NCBI GenBank assembly: GCA_043812955.1
Contig: JBDRLN010000064.1
Location: 326 to 64,325 of the forward strand
Length of the DNA stretch: 64,000 bases
Source: Candidatus Omnitrophota bacterium
Lineage (GTDB): Bacteria; Omnitrophota; Gorgyraeia; Gygaellales; Profunditerraquicolaceae
Reading direction: 5' to 3'
The position numbers and the translations under genes are program-made. Positions 1,377-26,000 of this stretch are shown here, piece after piece (the first letter of the stretch is position 1; the number at the start of each line of letters is the position of its first letter). Below the pieces are notes generated by a model. It worked only from the letters and a program-made list of their open reading frames with translations, did not search any database and was not told the DNA's origin.

Positions 1377-4154
1377 TTGATGCAAAAAGGGGTCAATCCG
1401 GTTTTTTCTTTTTTTTCGATGAAAAATAAAAAAACTTTATTAATCTTCTTATTGTTTCTTATTTCCTATTCTTTATTTGCTGAGCCTGCTTTTTCTGCCT
1501 CTCAGGCGGCGGAATATCTCTGCGATTTAGGTGTATCTTTTTATAAGCGCGAGAGATATGAAGAGGCGCTTACTGAATTTAAAAAAGCGCTGCTGCTTGA
1601 ACCCGATAATAAAATAGCCTTAAATTATATTAATAATGTATTTAACCGGCCTGTCCAACAGGCAGCCTCGCCTGTCGAACAACCTGCTAAAATAATTGCC
1701 CCGCAAGTACCTATCTTAGAGAACAAAAAAGTGACGACTAGCCGGGATCAAGTTATTCTTAGCGCTTTAAATAGCTACAGTCCAGTCCAATCTCAGGATA
1801 AATCTATTAATCAAACTTTACCTATTGATCAAACCGATAAAGCAATCAGTTATATAAATAGCAATACAGCCCAAGGAAATTTCGGAGTTCTGGATGTACA
1901 CGGAGATATTGCCTTGGGCGTAGGTTTTACTTCCGACGATTTTATCTGGAAAGATGCCAATGCTGATAAAATAGGAGTACCCAGGGAGAAAAACTGGAGG
2001 TATCTGTGGGGAGACGAAAAACACAATACTTACGATAAAAGGATTTTTGACCGCCTGAATCTGGATATAGAGACCAAATATAATTCGCCCTGGAATGCTT
2101 TTATGGAAATAACCGTTGATCCCTGGACTTTTGTCAGCAAGAAAGATGTGACCTCTTACTCTAATGTGGGAGGAGATTTTGTAGATATGCGTTTTAAATA
2201 CTGGTCTGCGGATAGAAGGACCGCAAATGAAGTATACCGTTCCAATAAAGGTAACATCATTAATATTAAACAGAATAAGGTTGTTGATGGTAAAACTAGC
2301 TTAATTAACCCTACGGCTTTAAATGATTGGTTTACAGATTTTAACCAGATAGAGCAGCAAAAACTTAAGATGGAATATCGCCCCTTAAGAAAACTCTGGA
2401 TTAATTATATAGACGATGATTATACCCTTAAGATATTTCCTATTTCCGACCAATTCGAGGCTTTAACTACCGATGACCCATTAAGGTTATCCGATAACCG
2501 TCACTATTGGGAAGAGGGCGCCTGGCTGGATGAGTATGAACCCAGCCGAGTATTTTATCCGGACAGCGGCTTAAAACCGATTAAAAGAGGAAGATGGATC
2601 AGGCGGATGTCTTTTTTTACCAAAGACAGCAGTGATGATTACCCCCATAGACTTACGTTTCTTCGGGGCGCGACTTTTAAAACTAAAACCGACTCTTATT
2701 CCTTTCAGGCCACCGTTGCTACTCCGATGAGCCTCTGGGATAATTACGAAAATTCAAATAGCATTAATTATGCTGACCGTTTAAAAATTCCTTTGAATGA
2801 AGACCTACAAGTAGGAATGGTTAATACGGTAAAATTAGGTTTAAATAAAGGCAGTTTAGAAGCCCAAAACGAGGTAACCGGGCTGGATTTAAATTATAAT
2901 TTGGATTGTAATACTGTCTTCTCGGCAGAAGCGGCGGGAAGTTACACCAGAATAGGGGAAGATCCAGGTTTTTACACAGTTTATCATGGGTTGGCAGGTA
3001 AAGCCGGGGTGAAATATGATGAATCTAAAGAGAAAAAAGGAGGATTTTATAAGTCAGAGGTATACGCTGCCCATATGGGCAATAAATTCTTTCCGGGATT
3101 GTCAAATTACCGTTATACCAGATCCGATGATCCAACTTTTAGCCGCAACGTATATTTTGATGAAATAGGTGATATTAATATACCCCTTATCTGGGGCGAT
3201 GGCATGGACCGGGCCAGAAATGCTCTCGGCCTTAAATTTAATATCAAAGGCTTTGATGAAAGATTAGACAATGATATCAAATACCGTAATGTCCATGAAG
3301 ATACGGGTAAATATGTTGAATCGGTATTAAGAGTAGAGTCTACCTATAAGGCTAATCCGCGATTAACTACTAAATTGTTGGGCTATTATCAGCATCTTCC
3401 CAAAACCCACGCTAATCAAGACCCCCTGCTTTACTTAAAGACTATGTATTCTTTAACCGATTATTTTTCTGATGTAGATGCCCATCCTGAAAATTCGGTA
3501 ATTGTCGATGATAAAGATCCGTCGATTGGCGCATTCGGAGCAGGGGCCCATTATTACCTGATAGAAGAATGCCTTGCGGTTGAAGGGATATATCAGCGGA
3601 CCAATGACCCGCTGGATTTTCCCCGTGGTTTGTTAAACGATAACTATGTTACAACCGAAACCCGAGATGGGCATCTCTGGGATAAAGTTTCTCCGTTTTT
3701 ATACGACCAGAGTTTTTTTAGCACGCCACCTTATCGATATTATGATATTGCCCGGACCAGATTGATCTACACCCCGAATGAAAAATGGGAACATATCTTT
3801 AGATTTACTTATAATGAAAATAGATACGCCAGCGCCTTAAATTATAATCTTAACCACGCCGGATTAGAAACAACCTATAAACCAAATGAGAAATGGACGT
3901 TTTGGGGTTCATATATTTACTCTCGCCTAATCGATGTTTATAAACAGAATGAACACCAAAAGAGAGCGGGATTCTCCGATGACCACCATAACTTTTTTAT
4001 CGGTACGGAATATAAATTAAACAAAGACGAAGCCTTTAACCTTCTTTATGGCGAGTTTGTGGCCTATAAGGAGCCTTTTCAACAGGGAAATTGGTGCCTT
4101 TCGTCCTTAGATACCCAGCACATAGTCCGCGTATCTTACCGCCGGAAATTCTAA
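1377..4154 (+). CDS. large secreted protein: N-terminal TPR repeats, then ~800-aa beta-rich region ending in aromatic ...YRRKF (possible outer-membrane beta-barrel)
   Basis: Signal peptide MKNKKTLLIFLLFLISYSLFA; real start more likely Met at 1419; TPR motif EEALTEFKKALLLEPDN; C-terminal Phe typical of OMPs. Confidence 0.55.
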   Translation: MMQKGVNPVFSFFSMKNKKTLLIFLLFLISYSLFAEPAFSASQAAEYLCDLGVSFYKRERYEEALTEFKKALLLEPDNKIALNYINNVFNRPVQQAASPVEQPAKIIAPQVPILENKKVTTSRDQVILSALNSYSPVQSQDKSINQTLPIDQTDKAISYINSNTAQGNFGVLDVHGDIALGVGFTSDDFIWKDANADKIGVPREKNWRYLWGDEKHNTYDKRIFDRLNLDIETKYNSPWNAFMEITVDPWTFVSKKDVTSYSNVGGDFVDMRFKYWSADRRTANEVYRSNKGNIINIKQNKVVDGKTSLINPTALNDWFTDFNQIEQQKLKMEYRPLRKLWINYIDDDYTLKIFPISDQFEALTTDDPLRLSDNRHYWEEGAWLDEYEPSRVFYPDSGLKPIKRGRWIRRMSFFTKDSSDDYPHRLTFLRGATFKTKTDSYSFQATVATPMSLWDNYENSNSINYADRLKIPLNEDLQVGMVNTVKLGLNKGSLEAQNEVTGLDLNYNLDCNTVFSAEAAGSYTRIGEDPGFYTVYHGLAGKAGVKYDESKEKKGGFYKSEVYAAHMGNKFFPGLSNYRYTRSDDPTFSRNVYFDEIGDINIPLIWGDGMDRARNALGLKFNIKGFDERLDNDIKYRNVHEDTGKYVESVLRVESTYKANPRLTTKLLGYYQHLPKTHANQDPLLYLKTMYSLTDYFSDVDAHPENSVIVDDKDPSIGAFGAGAHYYLIEECLAVEGIYQRTNDPLDFPRGLLNDNYVTTETRDGHLWDKVSPFLYDQSFFSTPPYRYYDIARTRLIYTPNEKWEHIFRFTYNENRYASALNYNLNHAGLETTYKPNEKWTFWGSYIYSRLIDVYKQNEHQKRAGFSDDHHNFFIGTEYKLNKDEAFNLLYGEFVAYKEPFQQGNWCLSSLDTQHIVRVSYRRKF

Positions 4155-4160
4155 TAATTA

Positions 4161-4212
4161 GGGGACGTTTCTATTTTTTTATTTGAAAAATTTGAAAAAA
4201 TAGAAACGTCCC
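4161..4212. repeat. Family-A palindrome copy 2: GGGGACGTTTCTATTTTTTT ... AAAAAATAGAAACGTCCC, between convergent genes; likely bidirectional terminator
   Basis: ~18-bp perfect stem, T-rich 3' flank on + strand; sits between the stop at 4154 (+) and the stop at 4221 (-). Confidence 0.8.
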
Positions 4213-4220
4213 GTTTGATT

Positions 4221-7200
4221 TTATTCTAAATAAATATCGATTTTTTTGATTTGCCTGTTGCGGATTTGTTCGGCGTAAGGCGAGGGTATGATTTCAGAAG
4301 TTATTTCTTTGGTATTTCCGGCCTGGTCAGATAGTATTATCTTCTTTATAAGAGCAGCGGCCTTACCAAACGTATTTTTCCTTTCCGGGTTATGGTATAT
4401 AACCGTGATTTTACTTAAAAAATTGAAAGTATAAGTTCTATCCTTCGAGAATAACCATCGCGGGAGAATAGGGCAGAACTTTAAATTTAATTCGTTTTTG
4501 TTATTCAAAACAAACGGCTGTTTTCCGATATTCATAACTAACCAGATATTTAAAAATTCCGCAGTTGAGCCGGAAAGGCGGGCTACAAATCCATTTCCAT
4601 GCAGTTTTTTATCCGGAAATACGCTGCTGACTAAAAATGACGAATTCTCTAGAATGCTCCTGCCGTAAACTTCAGGTTTTTGGAAAGGAATAAGGCAATT
4701 TTTAAAATCCTGAAAAAATTCTTCATAGAGCCCGCATTTAAGCAGTTCCAACAGATATTTATACTCCATATGCAGCCAGATAGATTCATTCTCTAGCCAG
4801 CCGGGAGTAAACACCCTGCAGCGCCCGATTTCTTCCGGCATGCTAGCCAGAGAAGAAGTTACTTTATACATCTTAAGTTTTTTATCGTAGAGCTGGCTTT
4901 TAAGGATTGCCTTATACATATTCTGGGCTTGGGCTTTATCCATTAGTCTTAAAGCATGAAAAGGTCCTTCCAAAAAGAAAGGCACTTTTTTCTGTTCAAA
5001 TTTCGTAGGTTTAATAAAGGGTGGTTCTAGGCTAACGAATTCTTCGACCACATTTATAAAATAGGAATAGTAAATGTTTTCTTTATTATCCCAGGCTTTA
5101 TTTAATCCTGAGTCTAATTTTTTTAGCGTATCTTCAAGTATGGTGATCAGCTCATCCCTATTAACCTGTTTTTCTTTTCCACTGACTCCAAAGTTAGTCT
5201 TCTGCCGATATTCCTCTTTTAAGGTGTGGGTTTTATCCCAGAAAATAAAGTCTTTATCATTAGTGTCAGTAGTAAAGTATTCGCGGATCAAAGCGCCTAA
5301 GCCAAAGAGCAGATTATATATTTCTTCAGCCAGAAACACATTTTCTATACTGTTTTTTTTGAGGCTTTCTTTTAAGAATATGGCCAGCCTTTTTAATTCA
5401 AAGGTTTCGCAACTTGATGATCCAAAAAGCGCGGGTAGACCGTTTAAGGAATCAAACCAGTTGGGCTTATCCGCCTCCATTTCAATACCTATTCCCGAGG
5501 GGTCAAGAGAAGCCAGCTTATTAGCTAAGATGCAGATCAATTTACCCGCGCAAGTGGTTTTATAAACTTCGCCTTGACCATGATCAGTCCTGGCTAAGCG
5601 CGGTGAGCTTACACGATTTTCCAACATCACTTTTTTTGAATCGTCAAAACCAACGGAATGCAATTGTTTAGGTAACCCATTGAGAAGAAGATATTTCTGG
5701 CAGCGGGGTTTTATAAACGTAAAATAATCATAAAACGTAAAATCTTTCTTTTCAAAGGCTAATTCTTTTAATTTCTCAGGATAGATTGCCAGGTAGTTTT
5801 CTATCAAGTCCAGATTATAGGCCCAGTGGTCAGTCCAAAAACCTTCATGAAAACTGGCTTCCTGGGATTTTTGGCAGTGAGAAAGAAGAATATTAATGAA
5901 TTCATCGGGTTTTACCTTCAGTTTAATTATTTTTTCTTCAAAAAATATAATGACCTCGCCGGGAGTAAAAGATTTGCTGAAGAACTCCGCTGTTTCCGGA
6001 GTAATTTTTCCCTGAATAAGAGTTTCTAATACCAGAAAAAACTGCTCCGGATTAGTCAGCCTGAATAAAGCGCCTTTGACTACTAAAGGGTTAAATCCGT
6101 CCAGTTGAATCAAGTTTAAGAACATGGTAATGTTTTCATCAGTTACCTCAGGATTAAACCAGTTGTCGCACCTGCGATTCTGATTAATGTCGCGGTAATT
6201 ACCATTACCTTGGGAGAAATAAGTAGGATCAAGTTCGTACTTATTATAGTCCCTTTCCAGATCTCCGTGTTTGCGGGAATAGAGATAAAATATGGTTTTA
6301 TGGAGTTTAGACTTGAAGCTGACCGGATAGCCACCGCGCATAATATTATCCAGGTAAGTCTGTTTGGCATAAAGGTCGAATTCTCTCGACGAGCTGCGGG
6401 TCGATATATCGTTCTGCAAATTTTCGATGGTCTCTTTATTCTGTTTCTTCTTTAAGTCTAAATAGCCTGCCTTCGTTATGCGGGAGAGGGAGGAATTCAG
6501 TATTTTTAGGTTGCGCATATTCCCGATTATGGAGTAATAAGTCTTCTGGGAATTGGGAGGAAGTTCAAAATCCAGGTCCAGAAAAGCGCAGGGGGTTTTA
6601 TTCTGAGTTATCTGGTTCTTGGGATAACGGAAAATTTTATTGCCCAGGAAATGATAGGGACAGGAAAAATCGCTTACCGGCCCAAATATGCATTGAGGAT
6701 CGACTACAGGCTTGATAATCTTTGAATGATTATTTTTGTCAAAGTGAAAACCCAGGAAGAAATTACCCTCTTTGATATGGATGACTTGTGGGCGGTCGAT
6801 CGGGTCGACATCTACTTTAAAGAAAGGAACATGATTCTCCAAATTCTCAACTTTCATCCAGGCCTCGACCGTACGGCTTAGTTTTTTCAAAAACAGATTA
6901 TATATTCCATACGGGACTATTTTAGGCACACCGTCCAACAACTGAATTTTACGGGTTTTTTTACCGGTATTTTTTATGGTTACGATCCTGACCAAGCCGG
7001 CATAGGAATCTTGGGGGATATTAAAATATTCAACTTCGGTTTTAAGTCCGAGAGTGGTATTTTCTTCCTGGATATTCAGGTCATGCGAAGTAATGGACAT
7101 CCTGGTATTTAGGTCAAAATCTATATTAGTAAACCCGTTATGAAAGGGCTCGTAAAATATATTATCTTTAGAGGAGAGTATCTTTACAAAAGTGCGGAAT

Positions 7201-15431: not shown

Positions 15432-15821
15432 ATGGCAAGGATAAGAAAAGTTTTAAGGCACGTTTTTCATGTCCGGGGTTTAACCAGAAGTTTCAAACTG
15501 GCCCTGATCGGGATAGGTTACCTATTTTATTATCATCGAAATATGCGTATGATTTTCTTAGCTGGTATCACGGCTGCCCTCTTCGGGATTTATTTCGAGT
15601 TGCGCGGGATAGAGTTAGCCGTATTATGCGTAATCATAACTTTAGTTTTCATGGCCGAGATTTTTAATACAGCTATCGAGCTAGTTATAGATATAACCTG
15701 TAAAAAATACCACCCTTTGGTAAAATTGGTTAAAGATATTTCGGCGGCAGTAGTACTTATAGCTTCCTTAAACGCGGTAACCGTAGGATTTATATTATTT
15801 AGTAAACGTATTTTCCACTAA
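15432..15821 (+). CDS. dgkA: diacylglycerol kinase / undecaprenol kinase (prokaryotic DgkA family)
   Basis: 3-TM ~125-aa protein with AEIFNTAIELVID motif. Confidence 0.8.
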   Translation: MARIRKVLRHVFHVRGLTRSFKLALIGIGYLFYYHRNMRMIFLAGITAALFGIYFELRGIELAVLCVIITLVFMAEIFNTAIELVIDITCKKYHPLVKLVKDISAAVVLIASLNAVTVGFILFSKRIFH

Positions 15822-15830
15822 CCTTTTTTT

Positions 15831-15863
15831 ACACCCCGTAGGTGTAATACACCTACGGGGTGT
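15831..15863. repeat. Family-C hairpin: ACACCCCGTAGGTGT-AAT-ACACCTACGGGGTGT (15-bp perfect stem, 3-nt loop) at the dgkA stop
   Basis: Read directly; a near-identical hairpin occurs at 59730-59762. Confidence 0.8.
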
Positions 15864-15881
15864 ACGGATAGATCAAGTTTT

Positions 15882-15930
15882 GGCGGCGTAACTTTAGCCT
15901 GATAGAGTAGTCGGCTCATACCCGATTTGT
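15882..15930 (+). pseudogene. truncated duplicate of the 5' half of the tRNA(CAU) gene (acceptor, D-arm and anticodon arm only), followed by a TCCCGC/GCGGGA hairpin insert
   Basis: 15872-15928 is a near-identical direct repeat of 16022-16078 but lacks a T-arm and 3' acceptor strand. Confidence 0.6.
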
Positions 15931-16031
15931 CACTGCTTTTCCCGCTAAATAGAGCGGGATTTCGCTAGACTGTTTTATTGCGGCGCTCATAAATCCAGTA
16001 TTAACGTAGCAAATTTATAAACTTAAGTTTT

Positions 16032-16105
16032 GGCGGCGTAACTCAGCCTGATAGAGTAGTCGGCTCATACCCGATATGCCAGAGGTTTAAATCCTCTCGC
16101 CGCCA
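16032..16105 (+). tRNA. tRNA-Met-type (anticodon CAU; could be elongator Met, initiator, or the tRNA-Ile2 TilS substrate) with non-canonical D-loop/T-loop
   Basis: Cloverleaf: acceptor GGCGGCG/CGCCGCC, anticodon loop CUCAUAC, T-arm AGAGG-TTTAAAT-CCTCT; D-loop AGCCTGATA implies an A19:U56 covariation in place of G19:C56. Confidence 0.6.
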
Positions 16106-16251
16106 TAAATTTGATAGACGGTGGTTTTCCCGCCCAAAGTTTAACATTTAGGCGGAATCCCGCCTGGCAATAAGAGCATTCTGGCGGGAAAATCCAGTCG
16201 CCGCCACCAGTTCTTTTATAGCAGGCGGCATTTTATTATCGCATTAACTGG

Positions 16252-16344
16252 TTTTCCCGCAAAATAATATAATTATGCGGGATTAACTCGCAGACGGGCT
16301 TCGTCCTATGATTTACGTTGCTAACGCTTCCGTAAATCATCTGC
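16252..16344 (+). ncRNA. candidate structured 5'-leader element: TTTCCCGC-loop-GCGGGATTAACTCGCAGACGG ... CATCTGC (copy A)
   Basis: Shares a ~30-nt core (GCGGGATTAAYTCGCAGACGGSCTT) and an outer GCAGAYG/CRTCTGC helix with 50922-51038, upstream of the ACP gene. Confidence 0.4.
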
Positions 16345-16401
16345 TTGTTATAAATCCAGTCGCCGCCACCAGTTCTTTAATAAGTAAAGGGGATTCAAGA
16401 T

Positions 16402-16644
16402 ATGGATATCAAACCGACGGATAAATGGTATTTTAAAACTACCCCTATAATAATCACCTTTTTGGCAGTGGAACCTTTAGTTTTACCCTTAATCTGGTTC
16501 AACCCGAATAATAAAAAAAATAAAAAAATTGTATTAAGCATAGTTGTTAGCATTTTAAGCATTTTCTTAGGCATCGCGACTATAATCTCCTTCAAATCGA
16601 TTATTAAATATTACGGGCTGATAAATATTGGTTATTTAAAATAA
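16402..16644 (+). CDS. small 2-TM membrane protein (80 aa), hypothetical
   Basis: RBS AAAGGGGA upstream; two hydrophobic helices; no recognisable homology. Confidence 0.4.
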   Translation: MDIKPTDKWYFKTTPIIITFLAVEPLVLPLIWFNPNNKKNKKIVLSIVVSILSIFLGIATIISFKSIIKYYGLINIGYLK

Positions 16645-16701
16645 ACCTTCATCTATCTGGTTTCCCTATGAATTTTTATCCTGCCGGGTTAATATATAAT
16701 C

Positions 16702-17676
16702 ATGCTGCTTGATAAGATCAAGTCTACAGTTAAAAAGTATAGCCTTTTAAACAAAGGAGATACAGTGGTAGTCGGCGTATCCGGAGGACCGGATTCGATT
16801 ACCCTGCTTTATGCCTTAAATAACCTAAAAAATATATTCGGTCTTAAGCTGCATATTGCCCATATCGACCATAAACTACGCAGGGATTCCGGTCAGGATA
16901 AAGAGTTTGTGATTAAATTGGCCAATAATTTAAAAATACCAGTAACAGTAGAAACTCTCAATATCCGAAAATTATCTTCAAAAGGCTCCCTGGAAGAGAT
17001 AGCCCGGAACATGAGACTCGCTGCCCTATTCAGGATAGCCAAAAAAATCAAAGCCAAAAAGATCGCCCTGGGGCATAACCTGGATGATCAGGCAGAAACA
17101 ATCCTGATGCGTATATTAAGGGGCGCGGGATTATGCGGACTATCCGGAATATTACCCAAGAGAAAATTTTCCGGTTTTACTCTCATCCGGCCTTTAATCG
17201 AAGTAAGGCGCAGGGATATTGAGGTTTTTTTAAAAAGAAAAGGGGTTTTACCCAGAATCGATAAAACCAATTCAAAAGACATATATTTCCGGAACAAGAT
17301 CCGCAACAGGCTTTTTCCATTATTGGAAAGAGAATACAGCCCTAATCTTAAAGAAATATTATCGAATATGGCTGAAAATATTGGTAATGATTATGATTAC
17401 CTTCTGCGGGAGGCCTATAAACATTTAGCCCGAACCGGCAACAGGGTAAATTTAAAGAAGCTCTCTAACTTACATCCCTCAATTCAGAGATTAGTGCTGC
17501 GCTTAAGTATTATTAGGATAAAAGGCGATACCCGGGCTATTACCTTCCAGCATATCCGGGAACTGGAGGATTTGATCTCAAACCGCCCAGTTAATTCTAT
17601 AGTTGATCTGCCTAAAAATATATCCGTAATCAAGAAGGAAAAAAACCTCTATTTATACCGCAAAAAAACTCAATAA
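16702..17676 (+). CDS. tilS: tRNA(Ile)-lysidine synthetase
   Basis: PP-loop VGVSGGPDS; TilS N- and C-terminal domains. Confidence 0.9.
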   Translation: MLLDKIKSTVKKYSLLNKGDTVVVGVSGGPDSITLLYALNNLKNIFGLKLHIAHIDHKLRRDSGQDKEFVIKLANNLKIPVTVETLNIRKLSSKGSLEEIARNMRLAALFRIAKKIKAKKIALGHNLDDQAETILMRILRGAGLCGLSGILPKRKFSGFTLIRPLIEVRRRDIEVFLKRKGVLPRIDKTNSKDIYFRNKIRNRLFPLLEREYSPNLKEILSNMAENIGNDYDYLLREAYKHLARTGNRVNLKKLSNLHPSIQRLVLRLSIIRIKGDTRAITFQHIRELEDLISNRPVNSIVDLPKNISVIKKEKNLYLYRKKTQ

Positions 17677-23888: not shown

Positions 23889-23968
23889 TTAAAAAATTTT
23901 ACCAAAAGGTGTAACGGGGCGTGGCCTCCGTTAAAAAGTATGGCGGATTCACCACGCAAGATGCAATA

Positions 23969-24043
23969 CGGGGCGTGGCTCAGTTTGGCTAGAGCGCTTG
24001 AATGGGGTTCAAGAGGTCACAGGTTCAAGTCCTGTCGCCCCGA
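23969..24043 (+). tRNA. tRNA-Pro (anticodon GGG) with C1:G72
   Basis: Acceptor CGGGGCG/CGCCCCG, anticodon loop ATGGGGT, T-arm ACAGG-TTCAAGT-CCTGT. Confidence 0.8.
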
Positions 24044-24260
24044 AATATTGACGAGGCACAGGTTTCCCGCTTTATGCAGAAGTTCTCAAGCGGGATTTCG
24101 CCACGATGAGTTAATAAGGTGGCTCATCAAGTCCTGTCGCCCCGAATAAATGAGGACAGTTTCCCGCCAGATAGATAAATTGCCTGCGGGATCCCGACTG
24201 TTCAAGAGTGGGTGTCGGGTCAAGTCTGTCCGCCCCGAAATATTGACGAGGCACAGGTTG
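24026..24260 (+). repeat. ~2.5 degenerate tandem units (~95-100 bp); each is a copy of the tRNA-Pro 3' end (CAAGTCCTGTCGCCCCGA) plus a TTTCCCGC-loop-GCGGGAT hairpin
   Basis: 39-bp near-identical direct repeats at 24026-24064 and 24218-24260; a partial unit at 24124-24147; TCCCGC/GCGGGA hairpins at ~24063-24100 and ~24168-24205. Confidence 0.75.
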
Positions 24261-25780: not shown

Positions 25781-25851
25781 GCGGGCATAGCACAGAGGAA
25801 GTGCAGTAGCCTTCCAAGCTACCTACACGGGTTCGAGTCCCGTTGCCCGCT
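25781..25851 (+). tRNA. tRNA-Gly (anticodon UCC)
   Basis: Acceptor GCGGGCA/TGCCCGC, anticodon loop CTTCCAA, T-arm CGGG-TTCGAGT-CCCG. Confidence 0.8.
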
Positions 25852-25972
25852 ATAAGTAGCCTTCTCCCGCTCAGAGAATATAGCAGAGAGGCGGGATCCC
25901 GCTATGATATAATATTAATAGTGGCGGGACAAGCGTAACATATATGTGAGTTCGATTCTCATCGCCCGCTAT
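25852..25972 (+). repeat. degenerate duplicate of the tRNA-Gly 3' end (GTGAGTTCGATTCTCATCGCCCGCTAT) preceded by a TCCCGC-loop-GCGGGA hairpin
   Basis: TTCGAGTCCCGTTGCCCGCTAT (tRNA) vs TTCGATTCTCATCGCCCGCTAT ~100 bp downstream; same arrangement as at the tRNA-Pro locus. Confidence 0.55.
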
Positions 25973-26000
25973 TGATAATATTCAAAAAGGGATTGCGAAT

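Follow-up and report, generated by a model that had tools for sequence, protein, structure and literature searches.

How does an essential tRNA gene come to lie among split pieces of its own kind, and what do these pieces record? The question is raised by a 64,000-nucleotide stretch of contig JBDRLN010000064.1 of a Candidatus Omnitrophota bacterium (hereinafter the window, meaning the whole stretch), in which an intact tRNA gene with the anticodon CAU lies upstream of tilS, surrounded by tRNA fragments joined to short hairpin-bearing inserts that we call cassettes. The answer proposed here is that this gene, in which an A19:U56 pair takes the place of G19:C56, is conserved and functional and probably specifies elongator tRNA-Met; that the fragments are outer parts of earlier alleles of the same gene rather than one random duplicate; and that these alleles might have succeeded each other as tRNA genes were replaced, repeatedly and in nested fashion, at a conserved hairpin cassette, a proposal that we regard as evenly balanced. 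The tRNA variant and the fragment system appear to be undescribed in the literature searched; the nearest known kinds, of which they are variants, are tRNAs in which a tertiary pair departs from the standard, and repeats or integration scars linked to tRNAs. Two genes are at issue first (below, L followed by a number denotes a locus from another sequence record):

16032-16105, + strand: intact tRNA(CAU) with A19:U56, T stem AGAGG/CCTCT, without encoded CCA
16702-17676, + strand: tilS of the short type (324 aa, PF01171 and PF09179, no second C-terminal domain), a neighbour and not demonstrably a partner

Conservation of an unusual tRNA(CAU)

ARAGORN predicts five tRNA genes in the window, the one with a CAT anticodon being called as tRNA-Met(cat) at 16031-16106(+), and the Rfam model RF00005 scores the span 16032-16105 at 61.8 bits, well above the gathering score of 29, so that both tools bear out the complete CAU tRNA announced in a preliminary description of this DNA. 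The gene reads GGCGGCG UA ACUC AGCCUGAUA GAGU A GUCGG CUCAUAC CCGAU AUGCC AGAGG UUUAAAU CCUCU CGCCGCC A, with AGCCUGAUA as the D loop (G18 A19) and UUUAAAU as the T loop (U56); thus, direct reading agrees with the earlier observation that A19 and U56 stand where G19:C56 is usual, as it is in the other four tRNAs of the window.

The G19:C56 pair is among the most conserved tertiary pairs of tRNA and forms the elbow that is read by RNase P, the ribosome and T-box RNAs. This pair is absent from the window tRNA(CAU) and from all its homologues, in which a Watson-Crick A19:U56 pair is found instead, a same-shaped replacement of the universal elbow pair throughout the phylum in this tRNA. Being fixed phylum-wide in one tRNA only, A19:U56 is a natural experiment on the need for G19:C56.

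How widespread is the variant? A scan of one genome per species, with a pattern demanding A19, CAU and U56, gave at least 119 contigs; the A19:U56 tRNA(CAU) is present in at least 119 species genomes, the record titles of which name Candidatus Omnitrophota except for some 'uncultured Planctomycetales' bins and one 'bacterium'. The same D and T loops are found in loci reached independently, through TilS homologues and through an interrupted-T-loop pattern. When the cloverleaf is imposed on an alignment of 46 distinct tRNA(CAU) sequences (mean identity 92%), 97.9% of the stem cells pair, and both-sided changes are observed at six pairs (6:67, 10:25, 28:42, 49:65, 50:64 and 51:63; 72 cells). The covariation score is 0.233, compared with 0.084 in shuffles and at most 0.093 with slid partners, and none of the 500 shuffles reaches it. 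Because of this stem pairing and covariation, the gene can be taken to be under selection and functional rather than decayed, and the spread over at least 119 species genomes bears out the earlier view of A19:U56 as a compensatory change. As a side observation, a viral contig from IMG/VR (L133, 11768-11842) encodes an initiator-like tRNA(CAU) with the T loop UUUAAAU (U56) and a normal D-loop GG, that is, a G19.U56 wobble; it is unrelated to the Omnitrophota gene.

Elongator methionine or isoleucine?

So which amino acid is this tRNA likely to carry? The preliminary description took the position of the gene immediately upstream of tilS as a hint that it might encode tRNA-Ile2, the substrate of TilS, and named positions 3-70, 4-69, 5-68 and 27-43 as informative. 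Among the 46 sequences, G1-C72, G2-C71, C3-G70, C11-G24, U12-A23 and C38 are invariant, and so are G4-C69, G5-C68 and C29-G41. The elongator tRNA-Met features CAU, A73, G2-C71 and C3-G70 are thus all present and invariant; these, together with G1-C72, Y11-R24 and the standard cloverleaf, are shared with bacterial elongator tRNA-Met, from which the present tRNA differs in A19:U56, in the T-loop DNA TTTAAAT and in the G-C pairs at 4-69 and 5-68, where E. coli has U4-A69 and A5-U68, its MetRS determinants and TilS antideterminants. The bacterial Met determinants have been given as A73, G2-C71, C3-G70, U4-A69, A5-U68, C32, U33, CAU and A37 (PMC9976931), but the E. coli rules on U4-A69/A5-U68 are not universal (PMC1635315). 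For Ile, the bacterial determinants are A73, C4-G69, U12-A23, G16, U20, U21, C29-G41, A37 and A38 (PMC9976931), and according to Silva et al., G3/A3 is an Ile mark, Met and fMet tRNAs usually have C3-G70, and C4-G69/C5-G68 are frequent in Ile (PMC1635315). In the present tRNA, neither G3/A3 (with C70/U70) nor C4-G69 together with C5-G68 is found, none of the pairs at the three named acceptor positions being an Ile2 mark. As for the IleRS determinants, C29-G41, A37, U12-A23 and U20 are present, and A38, G16 and U21 are replaced by C38, C16 and A21. Initiator tRNA-fMet, the marks of which are a C1xA72 mismatch, A11-U24 and R29G30G31/Y39C40Y41, is ruled out by G1-C72, C11-G24, C29-G41 and the lack of a G run at 29-31 (PMC1635315).

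Taken together, these positions make elongator tRNA-Met the likely identity. The anticodon loop YUCAUAC combined with the acceptor GGCGGNG is presumably the elongator tRNA-Met type of Bacillus and other Firmicutes and of plastids. It weighs against the assignment that it is argued from identity positions and from a likeness to Firmicute and plastid tRNA-Met sequences. No other CAU tRNA was found in the 64-kb window or in the 8-20 kb loci of relatives.

Could the gene nevertheless encode tRNA-Ile2, kept beside tilS for co-regulation with its modifying enzyme? The tRNA-tilS order is found in all 77 loci that reach both genes; C29-G41, U12-A23 and A73, shared with tRNA-Ile2 like the anticodon itself, are IleRS determinants (PMC9976931); and G27.U43, G30-C40 and U44 are states of E. 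coli tRNA-Ile2 (PMC2500205). Furthermore, because the TilS encoded here is short, without the acceptor-stem-reading domain, the E. coli acceptor-stem rules may not transfer, and C4-G69/C5-G68 need not hold. These points are set against C3-G70, G4-C69 and G5-C68, and against the invariant C38 at the place where IleRS uses A38, positions 32/38 being those by which TmcAL separates tRNA-Met from tRNA-Ile2 (PMC12514573). Of the named positions, 27-43 does show the E. coli tRNA-Ile2 state in the window, but the pair is not conserved among the 46 sequences (GU in 20, AU in 6, mismatch in 20). Thus, the tRNA-Ile2 identity suggested earlier is not borne out, and we consider it unlikely.

The adjacency to tilS is real and phylum-wide, but it provides no evidence of partnership because it belongs to a long shared synteny that is often broken by insertions. 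With the window proteins as queries, tblastn recovers throughout the phylum the order ctpA-polysaccharide deacetylase-tsaD-mgtC-bactofilin-HTH-dgkA-tRNA-tilS-ftsH-folP-cdaA, the identity of TilS across the syntenic loci ranging from 38% to 91%; a look-up of the window TilS as an exact protein gave no hit. The tRNA-tilS gap, which spans 49-3439 bp in the 77 loci (the dgkA-tRNA gap spans 9-2041 bp), is a dumping ground for unrelated cargo, including PAS, GGDEF, PilZ, a Wzx-like flippase, a nuclease, toxin-antitoxin pairs and AbiEii, so that up to 3.4 kb of unrelated genes break a linkage that might otherwise recall tRNA-Ile2. The tRNA-tilS adjacency is inherited gene order, and a CAU tRNA beside tilS should not be labelled tRNA-Ile2 on position alone. 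In what follows, we refer to the gene as tRNA-Met.

Pieces of older alleles around the intact gene

What, then, are the fragments on the two sides of this gene? From left to right, the window contains the following (hp1 denotes a hairpin of the type UCCCGN..NCGGGA):

15875-15881, + strand: leader AAGTTTT, identical to the leader before the intact tRNA at 16025-16031
15882-15939, + strand: pseudo-tRNA 5' piece, tRNA positions 1-56 of an older ACTGG/CCAGT-type allele
15940-15990, + strand: hairpin cassette I_A, 51 nt, in the T loop at TTT^AAAT; hp1, TTTCGC, a weak second hairpin, GCTCAT
15991-15999, + strand: rest of the split T arm, AAATCCAGT, that is, AAAT (T-loop 3' half) plus CCAGT (T-stem 3' strand)
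16000-16031, + strand: leader of the intact gene, preceded by an AT-rich spacer; unmatched in all fetched loci
16113-16127, + strand: GATAGAC-GGTGG-TTT, probably a D-loop piece fused to a T-stem 5' strand and ending at the T-loop TTT
16128-16189, + strand: cassette I_X1, 62 nt, two hp1-type hairpins (TCCCGCC..GGCGGAA and TCCCGCC..GGCGGGA); minimum free energy (MFE) -34.2 kcal/mol, z -4.6
16190-16220, + strand: tRNA 3' piece 1, AAATCCAGTCGCCGCCACCA (positions 57-76, CCA encoded; 16190-16209) plus flank GTTCTTTTATA
16247-16254, + strand: ACTGG-TTT, T-stem 5' strand and T-loop start of a third split T arm
16255-16351, + strand: cassette I_X2, 97 nt, hp1 (TCCCGC..GCGGGA) and two more hairpins, the T stem closing the fold; MFE -37.0 kcal/mol, z -4.1
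16352-16382, + strand: tRNA 3' piece 2, AAATCCAGTCGCCGCCACCA (16352-16371) plus flank GTTCTTTAATA

The upstream copy, 150 nt from the gene, begins with a 19/19 match that covers the 7-nt leader and the first 12 nt (15875-15893 equals 16025-16043) and continues for a further 44 nt at 89% identity; no such match occurs in the shuffled window. The copy reported earlier is therefore real, but its tRNA-derived part is 15882-15939, not 15872-15928, and its supposed break after the anticodon arm was a misreading: the piece comprises the acceptor 5' strand, the D arm (with one additional T), the CAT anticodon arm, the variable loop TTGTC, the T-stem 5' strand ACTGC and TTT from the start of the T loop, and so runs on to position 56. 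The 3' stretch of the piece looked unrelated to the intact gene because it comes from another allele; the whole piece is 96-97% identical to the full genes of L002, L015, L031 and L089, and an orthologous pseudo-piece is found in L120, the closest relative. Neither ARAGORN nor Rfam, even at E<=10, calls a tRNA in it. The interrupting hairpin reported before does exist, as the hp1 TCCCGC-TAAATAGA-GCGGGA at 15940-15959; it opens the 51-nt T-loop insert rather than following the anticodon arm, and the insert folds with the T stem closing the structure. After 15999 the DNA reads ATTAACG, the acceptor 3' strand is missing, and the homology with L120 stops exactly there.

Downstream of the gene lie two tRNA 3' ends, at 16190 and 16352, that are absent from the preliminary description. 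Each consists of a T-stem 5' strand, TTT and an insert (62 or 97 nt), followed by AAAT-CCAGT-CGCCGCC-ACCA; accordingly, AAATCCAGTCGCCGCCACCA takes in the 3' half of the T loop and the 3' strands of the T stem and of the acceptor stem and ends with the discriminator A and CCA, and behind both copies there is a shared flank of 11 nt, GTTCTTT(T/A)ATA (0 copies expected by chance). The T stem CCAGT of these pieces misfits the intact gene (CCUCU) and fits the ACTGC/ACTGG of the upstream copy and of the second 3' end. The commonest allele, which we denote type II (L002 and others), reads ...CCCGAT TTGTC ACTGG TTTAAAT CCAGT CGCCGCC ACCA, and relatives such as L002 show ...CCCGATTTGTCACTGGTTTAAATCCAGTCGCCGCCACCA; AAATCCAGTCGCCGCCACCA is identical to its 3' end, and the 5' piece and the 3' pieces of the window together make up a complete allele of the L002 type. 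The piece at 16352-16382 is probably the original 3' end of the old gene with its original flank. The short piece at 16113-16127 is probably a remnant of yet another, GGTGG-type allele, CGGTGGTTT being the 5' side of the type I T arm in relatives.

All three Met inserts start with a hairpin UCCCGC(C)...(G)GCGGGA, and all Met fragments are broken within the T loop, at the end of its T run (GGTTT^AAATCC), and are joined to the cassette there. It is U56 that makes the T-loop DNA of tRNA-Met a palindrome, TTTAAA, the centre of which the insert cuts; the palindrome is not required, because in tRNA-Pro the insert follows TT in TTCAAGT.

Recurrence of split copies in Omnitrophota

Is the window exceptional? 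Under strict patterns, extra 5' or 3' pieces are present in 25 of 119 loci, and a looser search shows that in about 36 of 115 loci, about a third, a 3'-end copy follows at a distance of no more than 300 nt. For annotation purposes, tRNA fragments beside tRNA genes are systematic here and not noise. The break points are discrete and lie in tRNA loops. The 5' pieces stop at 33/34 (L016, L025, L057, L069), at 38 (L002, L048, L052, L074 twice, L075) or at 56 (window, L120, L034, L068, L079, L188, L221), with a single piece stopping in the D arm (L111); the 3' pieces start at 33/34 (L029, L072, L082), at 56/57 (about 20 cases) or at 60/61 (about 25 cases, frequently forming tandem arrays of 48-62 nt), and others start at the acceptor strand. 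Furthermore, it is always the outer part that survives. In each of the seven upstream copies split in the T loop, the 5' end is present and the acceptor 3' strand is gone, and an intact gene follows 125-210 nt downstream, whereas the more than 20 downstream modules keep the 3' end together with the local gene's own flank, up to 29 nt or more. That the 3' pieces carry this flank argues for copying at the DNA level and against reverse transcription of mature tRNA. Retro-insertion of a mature tRNA, an idea raised by the CCA on the fragments, was rejected: the fragments copy the local flank (ACT.., ATT.., ACCA; up to 29 nt), and many of the genes encode CCA themselves (62/121).

The simplest explanation would be plain tandem duplication of the tRNA gene with random decay, the hairpins being ordinary terminators. 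Regular spacings are indeed observed (150 and 162 nt in the window, 109 in L122, 182 in L074, 48-62-nt arrays in L030/L069), and DNA-level copies with flanks are what this explanation calls for. Random decay, however, would be expected neither to keep the outer end every time (7/7 upstream, >20 downstream) nor to set every break in a loop; the presence of one homologous cassette at the breaks of three different tRNAs and the xenologous intact alleles described below would remain unexplained, and hp1 is not followed by a consistent U tract. We consider this explanation improbable; because outer ends are kept, insertion inside the old copy fits better.

Could the interrupted copies be T-loop introns or split tRNAs, functional after removal of the insert? 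The insert is found at a single, exact position of the T loop, and the T-stem halves that flank it are intact, which recalls the archaeal intron-containing and split tRNA genes, where tRNA halves also flank the interruption. The present copies, however, belong to a bacterium, are one acceptor strand short and never occur without an intact gene beside them: none has both acceptor strands (0/7 upstream copies keep the 3' strand), the downstream modules lack positions 1 to about 43, an intact gene lies beside each interrupted copy (7/7), and Rfam finds no intron. A metagenome scan with TCATACCCG-N12-TTTTCCCG for a T-loop intron was likewise negative, 118 of the 120 returned loci being chance matches and two being real with an intact gene downstream. 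An assembly artefact is contradicted by assemblies made independently, in different projects and with different assemblers, that show the same arrangement (L122, L123, L124, L126, L127; L079, L221). Either of these explanations appears to us very improbable.

The modules are variable in number and kind. L123 has one and L122 two, and arrays are found in L030, L052 and L069; pseudo-copies also gain D-loop hairpins that are partly inverted copies of adjacent tRNA sequence (L016, L068, L120). In L029, L082 and L072, classical islets are bounded by the tRNA on one side and, on the other, by a 42-nt repeat beginning in the anticodon loop: the 3.0-kb islet of L029 (oriented 4023-7055) carries AbiEi/AbiEii (Pfam AbiEii, 2.5e-39), that of L082 (1.0 kb) two small toxin-antitoxin-like ORFs resembling a BrnT/BrnA pair, and that of L072 (1.1 kb) a lipoprotein; no integrase was found in the three islets. 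A second module type lies upstream of the tRNA in L002, L048, L052, L074 and L075, where the tRNA 5' half stops at position 38 and is continued by UUAAAUGAG, a long-range helix and GAAUUUAAUCC, after which comes a covarying hairpin with GGACC at its end; module and leader occur in tandem (twice in L074), and part of the last hairpin repeats the adjacent leader in inverted orientation. In a third type, the break is at 33/34 (L016, L025, L057, L069). In the metagenome-assembled genome (MAG) JAHKAP01 (L001/L125, contigs 79 and 32), the assembly breaks inside tandem modules downstream of the tRNA; tandem modules fragment short-read assemblies, and therefore copy numbers in MAGs are lower bounds.

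Allele replacement at tRNA-Met and at other tRNA genes

Do other tRNA genes of the window share these features? Two of them do:

23969-24043, region 23914-24260: tRNA-Pro(GGG), same architecture as tRNA-Met
25781-25851, region 25781-25980: tRNA-Gly(UCC), followed by two hp1 hairpins and then a T-arm-plus-acceptor piece

At tRNA-Pro, a 12-nt 5' fragment with a TCCG..CGGA hairpin lies 55 nt upstream, and two modules follow downstream. In the first, CACAGG-TT and TCAAGT-CCTGT-CGCCCCGA enclose a cassette of type a (the types are described below), and in the second, GACAG-TT and TCAAGT-CTGTC-CGCCCCGA enclose one of type b, after which comes a trailer repeat. For comparison we used the close relatives L256 (TilS 91% identical; the same locus as L120) and L257-259 (TilS 72%). 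The type a module of tRNA-Pro is orthologous in the window, L256 and L257; however, the intact tRNA-Pro of L256 has the T stem GACAG/CTGTC, that is, the T stem of the second window module, and its own module keeps CACAGG/CCTGT. Judging from these sequences, T-stem alleles swap between the tRNA-Pro gene and its modules, and module T stems are often unlike that of the local gene.

At tRNA-Gly, the piece behind the window gene corresponds, with 38/39 identities, to the 3'-terminal third of the allele found in the relatives, their flank included. Because this third and its flank survive downstream, the old tRNA-Gly gene was evidently overwritten from the 5' side by a foreign allele with cassettes. 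The window gene is only 69-70% identical to those of L256/L257, which are 99% identical to each other. For tRNA-Met, the relatives' alleles are identical to each other and 82% identical to the window allele, which in turn is 97% identical to that of L078/L087. In contrast, tRNA-Thr, tRNA-Tyr and tRNA-Pro are 92-100% identical between the window and the relatives; no hairpin cassettes or fragments were detected at the tRNA-Thr and tRNA-Tyr of the window. L256/L120 shares the upstream Met pseudo-piece, with an added D-loop hairpin, up to position 65, where homology stops exactly; to the right of it, spacer and intact allele differ, and there are no 3' modules. From these comparisons, the tRNA-Met and tRNA-Gly of the window can be recognized as replaced alleles, which diverge from those of a relative with 90% identical ftsH DNA. 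Essential tRNA genes in these small-genome bacteria would thus be replaced laterally, and often.

A conserved family of hairpin cassettes

What do the breaks have in common? By the criterion of sequence, the cassettes form a conserved family with the core UCCCGN..NCGGGA. Type a consists of hp1, UUUCGC, a second hairpin hp2 (GCCRC..GYGGC) and UCA, and is found in I_A of the window and in L001/L122, L032, L034, L068, L079 and L093; in a variant (L052, L060, L075), the two hairpins are separated by CURC and followed by UUGA. Type b consists of two tandem hp1 hairpins, as in I_X1. The arms vary with compensation, and UCCCG/CGGGA is fixed. In RNAfold predictions, the T stem closes most modules around a three-way junction, and in 11 of the 16 modules it encloses hp1 together with another hairpin, the lowest z being -4.8. 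The I_A cassette is 56/60 (93%) identical to its counterpart in L257/L122, which lies between CGTGG and CCACT downstream of a different allele; between these genomes, tilS DNA is 75% and ftsH DNA 83% identical. In the other lineage represented by L221, a tRNA-Gly 3' copy starting in the anticodon loop is fused to an inverted hp1.

The family is confined to the vicinity of tRNA genes. The pattern TCCCG-N8-38-CGGGA has nine matches in the window, with 1.5 expected, and seven of the nine lie beside tRNA-Met, tRNA-Pro or tRNA-Gly; in 790 kb of loci, all well-formed hp1 hairpins are near tRNA. A genome-wide MITE or REP family was rejected as an identity for the cassettes, since within the 64 kb neither the cassette motifs nor the fragment motifs occur away from tRNA genes. 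At gathering thresholds Rfam finds only tRNAs in the window and 14 loci, and nothing credible even at E<=10 in 15700-16700; a promoter and terminator scan gave counts no higher than the shuffled expectation.

Nested replacement, functional RNA or an undescribed system?

Any scenario has to accommodate the established anatomy, its recurrence, the confinement of breaks to loops, the survival of outer parts and the replacement of alleles. The explanation that we propose, with the even balance stated at the outset, is that tRNA genes have been replaced again and again, in nested fashion, through recombination that is site-specific or directed by hairpins. New alleles, with their own leader, trailer and cassette, would enter the resident gene where recombination takes place, at the T arm or the cassette; the 5' part of the old gene would remain upstream, and its 3' part, together with the old flank, downstream; the pieces would then be multiplied and made alike by gene conversion and local tandem duplication. 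Under this hypothesis, the split pseudo-tRNAs record a fast lateral turnover of essential tRNA genes, and the nested fragments with their one cassette make a readable record, of possible use for following gene flow among uncultured lineages.

Several findings weigh against this hypothesis. No match to XerD or lambda Int was detected by tblastn in the window or in about 130 loci, and no recombinase family is among the top Pfam families listed for 77 gap ORFs. One-step insertion fails for L079 and for the window, where cassettes lie on both sides, so that several events or a pre-existing split target have to be assumed; among one-step models, Campbell integration, unequal crossing-over and long target duplication were considered and rejected, as none gives all the junctions. 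A prophage or viral att site was also sought, and IMG/VR scans gave only unrelated tRNAs or coding matches. Finally, the cassettes are more conserved than coding DNA (I_A 93% vs 75% for tilS; the orthologous Pro module 88-90% vs 75-83% for tilS and ftsH), and therefore a selected function fits as well as, or better than, a scar.

Such a function is the essence of the strongest competing explanation, namely that the modules are co-transcribed tRNA-like RNAs or processing or regulatory elements, kept by selection, in which the split T arm closes a three-way junction and is followed by the acceptor 3' strand with or without CCA. Besides the cross-genome conservation of the Pro module in three genomes and of I_A, this explanation can call on stems that are kept while loops vary, on compensatory arms in hp1, hp2 and the T stem (GCCAC/GTGGC, GCCGC/GCGGC, GAC/GTC), on the predicted folds of 11 of the 16 modules, and on the location of all modules on the tRNA strand directly before or after the gene. 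An analogue, moreover, was confirmed in E. coli, where three 178-nt units each overlap a copy of the tRNA-Tyr 3' end and are annotated rttR. However, the number, order and content of modules differ among close relatives (for Met, three in the window and one in L120; two in L122 and one in L123), most tRNAs (Thr, Tyr) and most genomes have none, the T stems of modules are often mismatched (L060) or their acceptor strands decayed (L079, L123), and no Rfam family matches them. We hold the functional-RNA explanation to be possible but doubtful.

The E. coli tyrT/tyrV repeats (178 nt x 3.14; rtT/RttR RNA, tpr), the anatomy of which we confirmed in K-12, are the nearest described system. In both cases, tandem units with copies of the tRNA 3' end lie directly downstream of a tRNA (X1/X2 of the window, L030, L052, L069, L122). 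The Omnitrophota units differ in that they are 48-160 nt long, their tRNA piece starts inside a loop and is joined to the conserved hairpin cassette, 5' pieces also occur upstream, and several tRNAs, a whole phylum and the exchange of intact alleles are involved; on inspection, the two sets of units are unrelated in sequence. The partial tRNA duplications at attL/attR sites offer another parallel, with 3'-part direct repeats that start from the anticodon loop or the T loop (in the window, 16190-16209 and 16352-16371). Like integrative elements, the present system includes cargo islets (L029, L082, L072) and an insertion hot spot, the tRNA-tilS gap. Unlike them, it has no integrase, most of its 'elements' are 50-100 nt long and cargo-free, and the incoming unit seems to be a whole tRNA gene; 5' fragments lie upstream, and the junction carries a cassette and lacks the acceptor 3' strand, with no tRNA regenerated.

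A more radical version of the nested-replacement hypothesis, which we offer tentatively and think rather unlikely, is an undescribed recombinase-less or trans-acting Omnitrophota system, in which small cassettes of a tRNA gene and a hairpin module replace resident tRNA genes by entering their loops, especially the T loop, the module being either a folded, attC-like recombination site or a selected tRNA-like RNA. Whichever explanation holds, the fragment record might lead to the machinery of recombination, or to the RNA function, that underlies the cassette.

The gene neighbourhood

Directly after dgkA, at 15830-15864, the window contains a perfect 17-bp palindrome, TACACCCCGTAGGTGTA A TACACCTACGGGGTGTA, with no T tract, the L120 counterpart of which, TCCACCCCGTAGGTGG.., is kept with compensatory changes; it may be a processing or termination signal ahead of the tRNA region. 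Between the tRNA modules and tilS, an ORF for an 80-aa membrane protein (16402-16644), with no Pfam family among the matches listed, is kept in L120, L128, L129 and about 10 distant lineages, the L115 version adding a zinc-ribbon N terminus. In about 29 loci, the upstream gene is not dgkA but part of a CODH/ACS-type cluster, a methyltetrahydrofolate:corrinoid methyltransferase-like gene (L016, L048, L057, L069, L085, L012 and about 23 more), and here the tRNA marks the boundary of a large-scale insertion or rearrangement. The MAG JAUYEC01 (L010, L078) has two dgkA-tRNA-tilS loci with different tRNA alleles, probably two populations binned together rather than a true duplication.

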